Below are positions 45,406 through 46,713 of a stretch of 64,000 bases of DNA, one piece after another (positions within the stretch are counted from its first letter, which is position 1; each line of letters begins with the position of its first letter). The stretch is taken from NCBI GenBank assembly GCA_963740355.1, contig CAVUDW010000003.1:640001-704000 (forward strand), written 5' to 3'. The notes beneath the pieces were generated by a model that was given only the letters and a program-made list of their open reading frames with translations, did not search any database and was not told the origin of the DNA. A program made the position numbers and the translations under genes. The stretch comes from an uncultured Gemmatimonadaceae bacterium (GTDB taxonomy: Bacteria; Gemmatimonadota; Gemmatimonadetes; Gemmatimonadales; Gemmatimonadaceae).

Positions 45406-45422
45406 AGTAGCTGTGTTGAAAG

Positions 45423-46358
45423 TCAAGCCGTGGCGGGCGTGGGGGTCCGCCACGGTGTTTGCGTTTTGACCATCGCGTTGAGGATGGTGAGGAGGCGGCG
45501 GAGGCACGCGATCTTGGCGACTTTGGTGGGCTTCCCGGCGGCGCGCAGCGCCGCGTAGACGGGCTTGAGGACCGGATTCCATTGTGTGGCCACATGGGTG
45601 GCCATGTAGAGGATCGAGCGAATCGTTGCCCGCCCGCCCCAGCACACGCGGGCACCGCGGAATTGCCCGGATTCCTGCGCGAGCGGCGCGACGCCCACGA
45701 GCGCGGCAATGGCGCGCCGATTCAGCGTCCCCAATTCGGGCAACAGGGCGACCAAGTACCGTGCGCTCTGCTGGCCGATGCCCGGCACGCTCGTCAGGAG
45801 CGTCACCTGCGCTTGCCAGGCCGCATTCCGTTCGATCAGTTCGCCGATCTCATTGTCGATGTCACGCAGCGCCTCGGCGAGCGCCTCCAACGTCCCGCGC
45901 ACATTCGTCGCCACGCGCGCGGTCGCGACGTGCAGGCGATTCTTCTCCATCGTCTGCATCGTGACCAACTGCCGGCGCCGTTCCACCAAGGCCGCCAGCG
46001 CCTGCTGCTCCGCGTCGGCGAGCGGCCGGACGGGTGGGGCGAGCACGGCGCCAAACCGCGCCAGGATGCGCGCATCCACGCGATCCGTCTTCGCCAACTG
46101 GCCGGTGCTGCGCGCGAACTCGCGCACCTGCCGCGGATTGACGACCGCGACGGGGATCCCGGCGCCGGTGAGCGCGCCGGCGACGGCGCGATGATACGTG
46201 CCCGTCGCTTCCAGCACGACCAAGGTCGGCGGCTGCGCGGTGAGCGCGGTGACGAAGGCGTCGATGTCCGCCGCCGTATTGCGGAGCTGCGTCACCGCAC
46301 CGTCGTGGACCGCCACATCCAAGTGGGCCTTGCTGACATCAATGCCGAGATACGTCAT
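45423..46358 (-). CDS. IS110 family DEDD recombinase/transposase (311 aa)
   Basis: GIDVSK, LEATG, KTDRVDA (DEDD), SVPGIG, ESG serine loop. GGAGG RBS before ATG 46358. Confidence 0.95.
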
Positions 46359-46374
46359 ACTGCCTCCAGGTGAC

Positions 46375-46545
46375 GACCGCGCGCGCCCTGCCTTGCGAGA
46401 TGCGGGATCGCGTCGGCGTCCCTGGTAGCTGTCCGGGCTTGTAGCGATCGGGACGACGGCGCTCTGACTCTGCGACGGGCTCACGGCGCCCGGGGCGCTC
46501 CGAACGAGCTGCCGCCGTCCCGGAGATTTAGCTTCTGTGCGAGGA
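46375..46545 (-). ncRNA. Predicted IS110 bridge RNA (target- and donor-binding loops)
   Basis: Stem 46449-46460/46511-46522 encloses CGCAGAG (reverse complement of the right target). A second loop holds ACAGCTAC (= left donor) and GCAAG (~reverse complement of the right donor). Ends approximate. Confidence 0.75.
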
Positions 46546-46713
46546 GACATACAAGGCGCAGAGCCGCATCGATGGTTCCAACGCGGCAGCGAGCTTTCGC
46601 CCGCATCGAACGGCGAGACTACTTTGGGAACTGCCCTTGCAGTGCTGTTCCCAAAACATTTCAATCCGCATTCGTGCGCACCGACCGCGAAAATCACGCA
46701 GAACCCTTTACGT

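Follow-up and report, generated by a model that had tools for sequence, protein, structure and literature searches.

A multi-copy IS110 insertion sequence of probable IS621 type, with a predicted bridge RNA, in an uncultured Gemmatimonadaceae bacterium

The bridge-RNA model of IS110-family insertion comes from Durrant 2024 and Hiraizumi 2024. In IS621 of Escherichia coli (177-nt bridge RNA; structures 8wt6-8wt9), the first loop of the RNA recognises the target, the second the donor (Durrant 2024). As IS621 is described in these accounts, a CT core sits between a long left and a short right end; within each loop the left half-site is read by a 5' guide of the same sense, and the core plus the right half-site by an antisense 3' guide; the two nucleotides 3' of each right guide act as handshake guides (Hiraizumi 2024); a promoter is split across the circle junction; and insertion occurs into repeated extragenic sequence, a habit given as typical of the IS110 family (Durrant 2024). 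Thousands of predicted bridge RNAs are listed in the supplementary tables of Durrant 2024. Here we describe a locus in which counterparts of these features can be predicted, in a 64,000-nt stretch of DNA (the window) from an uncultured Gemmatimonadaceae bacterium (assembly GCA_963740355.1, contig CAVUDW010000003.1, positions 640,001 to 704,000). A 1150-bp unit on the minus strand of this window is very probably a complete insertion sequence of the IS110 group, IS621 type, the left end of which encodes a bridge RNA.

Read on the minus strand from 46555 to 45406, the unit starts with CT-TGTAT, the TGTAT of the left terminus lying at 46553-46549, and finishes with ACAGCTA-CT. The element, its gene and its immediate flanks are laid out as follows.

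45406..46555, minus strand: whole insertion sequence, with the CT core at 46555-46554 and 45407-45406; seven full-length copies share these ends
45423..46358, minus strand: recombinase gene, 311 aa plus stop, with catalytic residues D7, E50, D92, D95 and S230 and a GGAGG ribosome-binding site at 46367-46363
45408..45414, minus strand: left donor ACAGCTA at the right terminus, flanked by AC (from sequence and relatives)
46556..46562, minus strand: left target flank TCTGCGC, of which only GCGC (46559-46556) is matched by the guide
45401..45405, minus strand: right target flank CTGCG, the 5' arm of a palindrome CTGCG-TTT-CGCAG (45405-45393)

A BLAST search of the 1150 bp against its own genome (5.45 Mb, 5 contigs, 65% GC) returned seven full-length copies, five of them at 100% identity, one at 98.2% and one at 96.2%. 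The termini are identical in all seven copies, with CT at both ends of each. As expected of the IS110 group, terminal inverted repeats are absent, the CT core stands at each end, and a single CT is present in each of 32 unoccupied GCGCCTCTGCG sites of the genome; the left end, at 197 nt, far exceeds the 17 nt that follow the stop codon, again as in that group. The AC flanking ACAGCTA and the GT following TGTAT form a 2-bp sub-terminal inverted repeat around the 14-bp donor, within the 2-3 bp given for the IS110 group. Elements of the IS1111 group share the same DEDD recombinase family and are described as short on the left and long on the right, with sub-terminal inverted repeats of 7-17 bp; the end lengths and the 2-bp repeat found here therefore place the element in the IS110 group and not in IS1111.

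Open reading frames (ORFs) are uninterrupted and catalytic residues retained in 7/7 copies. Over the 936 nt of the ORF, the diverged pair of copies shows 21 and 43 changes, for the most part synonymous: 2 and 9 residues are altered and no stop arises. In the 197 nt of the left end these copies have only 0 and 1 changes, and in the right end none; this disparity indicates that the left end is more constrained than synonymous sites. The sole left-end difference among the seven copies, at element position 142, falls in the loop of the donor hairpin. Contigs of two DNA sequencing runs (X1 and X2) show no difference as far as 45399 and 46563, and then pass into other flanking sequence; these breaks fit a mobile multi-copy element and are not independent proof of one. 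Judging from the five identical copies, the open ORFs and the other flanks in metagenomes, the element is apparently intact and recently active. The minus strand of the contig carries the element in all seven cases, which may be chance (about 1 in 64). A replication-linked orientation bias was considered: GC skew is mostly positive on contig C2 and mostly negative on contig C3, and the idea was dropped because the copies do not have one common orientation relative to the fork.

The 311-residue protein, whose start codon lies 4 nt downstream of the GGAGG ribosome-binding site, matches PF01548 (DEDD_Tnp_IS110) over residues 4-143 (1.3e-26) and PF02371 (Transposase_20) over residues 186-268 (2.1e-15), and scores 211 bits, against a cut-off of 140, with the NCBIfam model NF033542, "IS110 family RNA-guided transposase". 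The best matches of solved structure found by phmmer are the ISCro4 transposase (9t56; E 1.2e-35, residues 3-303) and the IS621 transposase (8wt6; E 5.8e-33, residues 2-303), the latter with the same domain order and DEDD plus Ser motifs. The GID, EAT, TDxVDAR and ESG motifs line up with the catalytic motifs of both; ISCro4 was compared through its protein alone. By alignment, D7, E50, D92, D95 and S230-G231 are the counterparts of IS621 D11, E60, D102, D105 and S241-G242, the residues named as catalytic in the account of Hiraizumi 2024, and the S230-G231 context QESGQ aligns with YESGS of IS621. On these matches, the product is a predicted IS110-family DEDD plus Ser recombinase.

Folded as a single sequence, the left end forms two stem-flanked internal loops at -91.8 kcal/mol, with a z-score of only -2.68 relative to shuffled sequences, and relatives were gathered for this reason. 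A protein-based scan, restricted to one genome per species, yielded 80 loci at 36-60% identity. A left-end start was present in 74 of these, giving 63 distinct left ends that comprise 41 of a GC-rich type and 22 of a gammaproteobacterial type; the latter were kept out of the structure and target-guide counts and included in the donor and promoter counts. Alignment A1 consists of 31 non-redundant GC-rich-type left ends. Metagenome contigs were scanned with the donor-loop sequence, which gave 75 loci, 41 of them dropped for want of a left-end start within 200 nt. The 34 usable metagenome loci comprise 19 of a 1147-1180-bp type (17 distinct element-target pairs) and 15 of a longer type that were left out of the close-clade counts. 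Almost all relatives' left ends start with CTTGTAT.

In the consensus of the 31 left ends, both loops have an outer stem and an inner hairpin, making four helices with the following positions in the element.

46359..46555, minus strand: non-coding left end, 197 nt, encoding the predicted bridge RNA (fold and covariance model)
46506..46519, minus strand: outer stem of the target-binding loop, 5' strand, pairing with 46464-46452 around a bulged A at 46510; 13 pairs, 11 with two-sided changes, 95.8% paired
46452..46464, minus strand: outer stem of the target-binding loop, 3' strand (covariation)
46476..46492, minus strand: inner hairpin of the target-binding loop, CGGGC / GCCCG with a 7-nt loop; helix 2, 3 pairs, all with two-sided changes
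46435..46438, minus strand: outer stem of the donor-binding loop, 5' strand GCCC, pairing with GGGC at 46388-46385; helix 3, 97.6% paired
46404..46422, minus strand: inner hairpin of the donor-binding loop, GGGA / UCCC (covariation alignment)

Across the 24 pairs of these helices, 94.9% of cells in the 31 left ends are standard pairs, and 18 pairs have changed on both sides. None of 500 shuffles reached any of five covariation measures, and sliding the 3' partners by 1-3 columns lowered the paired fraction to 38-45% of cells. A covariance model built from 29 relatives, with the element and its closest relative excluded, finds a single match in the window, at 46384-46523 on the minus strand (72.8 bits, E 1.4e-15, the E-value being rough owing to a shortened calibration), and exactly seven matches in the whole genome, one per copy. 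The left end thus contains two stem-flanked internal loops, each with an inner hairpin, as in a bridge RNA. Since the stems covary while the loop sequences differ among relatives, the region is best read as a structured RNA with variable guides. These guides are placed as follows.

46493..46501, minus strand: left target guide region GGAGCGCCC, of which the presumed working part GCGCC (46498-46494) has the sense of the left target GCGC plus the core C
46468..46474, minus strand: right target guide CGCAGAG, the reverse complement of the core CT plus CTGCG (7/7)
46466..46467, minus strand: handshake dinucleotide UC of the target loop, U (46467) being complementary to left donor position 7 (A)
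46424..46432, minus strand: left donor guide ACAGCUACC, reading in the sense of left donor ACAGCTA and the core C
46392..46402, minus strand: right donor guide in two parts, CAU at 46402-46400 and GCAAG at 46396-46392 (read from sequence)
46390..46391, minus strand: GC, the donor-loop handshake dinucleotide, which complements C and G at target positions 7 and 6

In the donor loop, ACAGCUAC (46432-46425, also written ACAGCTAC) is an exact 8-nt match to 45414-45407. GCAAG pairs with CT plus TGT of the left terminus through one G-T wobble, CAU can pair with an ATG further in, and GCAAG or ACAAG is kept in 31/31 aligned relatives; the split fits a discontiguous right donor guide, as Durrant 2024 describes discontiguous pairing. 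The senses of the 5' and 3' donor guides are those of an IS621-type bridge RNA. Among 67 assessable related loci, 53 repeat the donor-loop 7-mer exactly beside the core, close to the 3' end of the ORF, 8 repeat it with a single mismatch and 6 lack it, a count that is partly circular in that right ends were located through the donor-guide match. Nine different donor-loop 7-mers occur across the relatives.

Each of the seven positions of the right target guide matches in 24-25 of the 26 element-target pairs for which both flanks are known, the consistent miss being a flank cut by a contig end; in the close clade, all seven positions match in 14/17 pairs and six in the other three. The guide also tracks its flank, with CGCAAAG beside TTGCG and CACGGAG beside CCGTG in that clade. 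Immediately 3' of the right guides, the first handshake base is complementary in both loops in 26/26 pairs, through two base states in the target loop and three in the donor loop.

All seven copies occupy the same short site. The left flank ends in GCGC in 7/7 copies (TCTGCGC in six, ACCGCGC in one) and the right flank starts with CTGCG in 7/7, beyond which the flanks diverge between copies after 4-14 bp, with no longer sharing in the 60-nt flanks examined. The recognised site is the 11-bp GCGC-CT-CTGCG. Besides the seven occupied sites, the genome holds the 32 unoccupied GCGCCTCTGCG sites noted above, 13 of them preceded by TCT, and most lie in intergenic arrays of GCAGTT, CTGCGG and CTCTGCG motifs; because the site belongs to an intergenic repeat family, the genome offers many landing sites. 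The seven copies thus show the sequence-specific insertion into repeated extragenic sequence that is seen in IS110 elements. CTGCG is followed after 3-4 bases by CGCAG, perfectly in three copies and partially in the other four, and the right half-site is accordingly one arm of a small palindrome. The element itself sits in this short-motif repeat family between two convergent genes (window positions 45320-45405 and 46556-46860), and some 160 bp away from its left end, at 46714-46728, the tandem target motif recurs in inverted orientation (CTCTGCGTCTCTGCG on the plus strand). Similar repeat arrays are found in many intergenic regions of the genome.

The left target guide is less straightforward. 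A nine-base guide of the IS621 style (8-9 nt) is not present: only GCGC plus C matches, and 46505-46502 together with the distal GGA form a non-guide spacer. Taken for the element alone, the match is 5/9, a value reached by 13/36 non-cognate targets, and it becomes convincing only through covariation in close relatives. Among wider relatives, distal target positions are matched far less often than proximal ones (17, 19, 24, 31, 32, 33, 31, 35 and 24 matches at positions 1-9 in 37 pairs). Within the close clade, the corresponding loop strands read GCGCT, GTGC, GTGAC, GCGTC, TGCGC, CGCGG, GTGTT or CCCCAAC, each followed by C, and these strings equal the core-adjacent bases of their own left flanks, while the bases 5' of the guide (GAUCA-like in most, GUUCG here) bear no relation to the target. 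A contiguous match of at least 4 (target suffix plus core C) occurs in 16/23 cognate pairs as against 21/468 non-cognate pairs; it is exactly 4 in eight pairs, including the three distinct pairs of the present element. These counts support a working left guide, in this subclade, of 4-6 target-proximal bases plus the first core base, preceded by a 5-6-nt spacer.

Several observations bear on how far this arrangement extends. The longer type of metagenome element (1201-1246 bp, n=15; L114, L115, L122, L125-L127, L132, L147, L153, L160, L164, L171, L177, L179 and L182) shares the donor loop and donor ACAGCTA; its left end is longer and includes an additional hairpin region on the 5' side, and as judged by eye 7-8 flank bases are matched by its left target guides. 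A short left guide is hence peculiar to the 1147-1180-bp type and independent of the donor. In two metagenome elements (L154 and L158), the left flank has an extra C before the core relative to the guide prediction, which looks like insertion one base out of register or at a near-cognate site. Alternative registers, wobble pairs and a left guide that is bulged and discontiguous were also examined by eye, and were dropped as over-fitting. Since the target is a direct repeat, selection might act against a perfect left guide that could pair with the right guide; this idea became superfluous.

An earlier note on this DNA had proposed much of the above, and most of it stands. Its coordinates, CT ends, donor (ACAGCTA-CT-TGTAT) and target (TCTGCGC-CT-CTGCG) are correct on the sequence and agreed by the seven copies, its compact 311-aa IS110 recombinase ortholog is borne out by the PF01548, PF02371 and NF033542 matches and the catalytic residues, and the two stem-flanked internal loops it saw in a left end of about 195 nt (197 as measured) are upheld by covariation in 31 relatives and by the 72.8-bit model match. 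The sequence and the covariation in relatives likewise agree with its placement of four guides (CGCAGAG, GGAGCGCCC, ACAGCTAC and GCAAG). The checks it suggested gave a two-loop fold with a single window match and, from the other genomic copies, the same ends with common GCGC-CT-CTGCG flanks in 7/7. The IS621 donor that it gave as very similar agrees at dA6, dT7, the C8-T9 core, dT10 and dT12 with the positions given in Hiraizumi 2024, and the full string does not appear in the main text of Durrant 2024. Its suggestion that the imperfect left guide points to a different preferred site did not hold: the genome has a single GGAGCGC-CT-CTGCG, the fully matching site, and it is unoccupied, while a short left guide is the norm across the clade.

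With the ends joined, a split promoter can be read across the junction from two hexamers.

45421..45426, minus strand: -35-like hexamer TTGACT, overlapping the stop codon and conserved in relatives
46546..46551, minus strand: -10-like hexamer TATGTC (read from sequence)

The two stand 17 nt apart when the ends are joined over one CT, and would be paired as a promoter only in the circle. A split promoter of this kind (-35 in the right end, -10-like in the left end, 16-18 nt apart) is present in 41/49 distinct junctions of relatives, and the prediction agrees with the IS621 junction promoter. By analogy with IS621, from which the transcription, circle, catalysis and promoter role are taken, and with the cycle as described in Hiraizumi 2026, the element would leave as a circle, its right end joined to its left end over a single CT, and the junction promoter would transcribe some 150-160 nt of the left end. 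This RNA would fold into the two internal loops and bind the 311-aa DEDD/Ser recombinase, the donor loop reading the circle junction and the target loop the genomic site. Ser230, with D7/E50/D92/D95, would cut beside CT and strands would be exchanged, the handshake bases (U at 46467, GC at 46391-46390) being able to pair with the incoming strands. The predicted product is an element flanked by CT inside GCGC-CT-CTGCG.

Against the interpretation of the left end as a bridge RNA, and of the element as an active IS621-type system, stand several observations. The single-sequence minimum-energy fold beats shuffled sequences by a moderate margin only, as its z-score attests, and joins GCG in the left guide to CGC in the right. 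Rfam 15, searched over 44800-47200 at E up to 1, gives no match (Rfam may hold no bridge-RNA family). The relatives were chosen by protein or donor-loop similarity and are hence not independent of the family definition, a concern that adds to the circularity of the donor count and to the poor discrimination of the left guide when the element is taken alone. The core CT is not represented in all four guide pairings: both 3' guides hold AG, whereas both 5' guides hold CC and not CU, matching the first core base only and placing C rather than U opposite the second, where the guide base varies in the close clade. The -10-like TATGTC is weak, at 3/6 to consensus. In contigs of four DNA runs, no circle junction, empty site or joint across the element was found over 45200-46800, and no RNA run containing the element sequence was found among public sequencing runs.

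These points leave room for other explanations. The element might be a genuine IS110 whose site is chosen mainly by the protein or by the repeat palindrome (CTGCG-N3-4-CGCAG), with the RNA playing a minor part or acting through its right guide only. A left guide that matches only four target bases and one core base would suit such a scheme, as would a right flank that coincides with the 5' palindrome arm, perfectly in 3/7 and partially in 4/7 copies; a 2026 preprint describes a target stem-loop that adds specificity for ISPpu10, and another preprint describes half a bridge-RNA match as enough for some IS621 reactions. We nonetheless consider this unlikely, given that the short left guide tracks the target across 17 close relatives at the rates given above, that the right guide changes together with the right flank (as in CGCAAAG/TTGCG and CACGGAG/CCGTG), and that copy 3, whose left flank is off the repeat consensus, still keeps GCGC.

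A different possibility is that the left end is a leader controlling transposase expression, as an attenuator, antisense target or promoter region, and that the guide-like matches are by-products of terminal conservation. Durrant 2024 gives regulation of transposase expression as the pre-2024 view of IS110 non-coding ends, and the left end does lie directly upstream of the ribosome-binding site, with RNA runs holding the sequence not found. Such a leader would give no reason for loop bases to track flanking DNA outside the element, as they do at the right target guide (24-25/26) and at the handshake (26/26, three base states), and it sits poorly with stems that covary around loops whose sequences vary among relatives; we judge it very improbable. 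Least credible of all is that the copies are inactive remnants that grew in number through duplication of the repeats around them rather than by transposition. All copies do lie in repeat-rich intergenic DNA and all seven are on the minus strand, yet their flanks differ beyond 4-14 bp, 7/7 ORFs are open with intact catalytic residues, five copies are identical over 1150 bp with the other two differing by 1.8% and 3.8%, and contigs of another sample run from both ends into different flanks. An IS110-group element of IS621 type with a bridge RNA in its left end remains by far the best account of the locus.

The element nonetheless departs from IS621 in several respects. The recombinase has 311 aa, compared with 326 in IS621. 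As IS621 is described, its left target guide comprises nine bases and its right target guide four nucleotides, compared here with 4 bases plus one core base after a spacer and with 7 nt; unlike in IS621, the second core base is unmatched by the 5' guides. The wild-type IS621 target is given as ATCAGGCCTAC, in place of GCGC-CT-CTGCG in a host of 65% GC. Closer are three copies in one genome of another uncultured Gemmatimonadaceae (L031-L033), whose protein, at 60% identity, is the closest found, and the 17 metagenome elements. They share the donor ACAGCTA-CT-TGTAT, the outer stem GGCAGCUCG, a right guide that is the same or one base off, and a short left guide after a spacer, and several insert in CTCTGYG-type repeats; they differ in left-guide bases and targets, in the spacer (GAUCA there, GUUCG here) and in the second handshake base, which is C here and A in most of them. 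Set beside by description, ISPpu9 and ISPpu10 of Pseudomonas putida are likewise multi-copy IS110 elements in one conserved intergenic (REP-type) repeat; the ISPpu10 stem-loop is described as a GC-rich 5' target extension, whereas the palindrome here lies on the right (3') side.

Further observations concern other IS110-family genes. The genome contains a second, different transposase gene of the family with an open frame (G000:C3:1718792-1719949, plus strand, 176.9 bits to NF033542) and a broken one with four in-frame stops (G000:C2:1432717-1433557, plus strand, 53 bits); the bridge-RNA covariance model has no match beside either. At its 5' end, the transposase reading frame of six Dehalococcoidia relatives (L056, L070, L071, L074, L077 and L088) carries a tandem repeat of 15 nt (ATGACCACTGGGACA-like), each unit of which starts with ATG, and the number of units varies between copies within one genome.

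We put forward tentatively, as a possibility that we hold to be rather doubtful, that the subclade uses an asymmetric target loop, in which a short left guide follows a conserved spacer, the right guide is fixed at 7 nt, and the right half-site dominates specificity. If this were so, and if the spacer and palindrome had roles of their own (protein contact, structural gate), the guide rules would differ from those of IS621, which would matter for the reprogramming of compact orthologues. Bridge recombinases are under development as programmable DNA-insertion tools, and the present element is a compact orthologue from a GC-rich bacterium in which the sequence by itself suffices to read the donor, the target, both guide loops and both handshake positions. 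The close relatives amount to a natural series of reprogrammed guides, in which the left guide is shorter and the right guide longer than those of IS621, and this is useful for the choice or engineering of orthologues. The locus is a clear example of the kind of bridge-RNA system described in 2024, not a new kind, and would not surprise a specialist; the variation it shares with its close relatives, a short left guide covering the first core base only and a 7-nt right guide, is modest. From the viewpoint of genome biology, it is an ordinary multi-copy IS110 element living in a host repeat family, whose protein the NCBI annotation model would name correctly.

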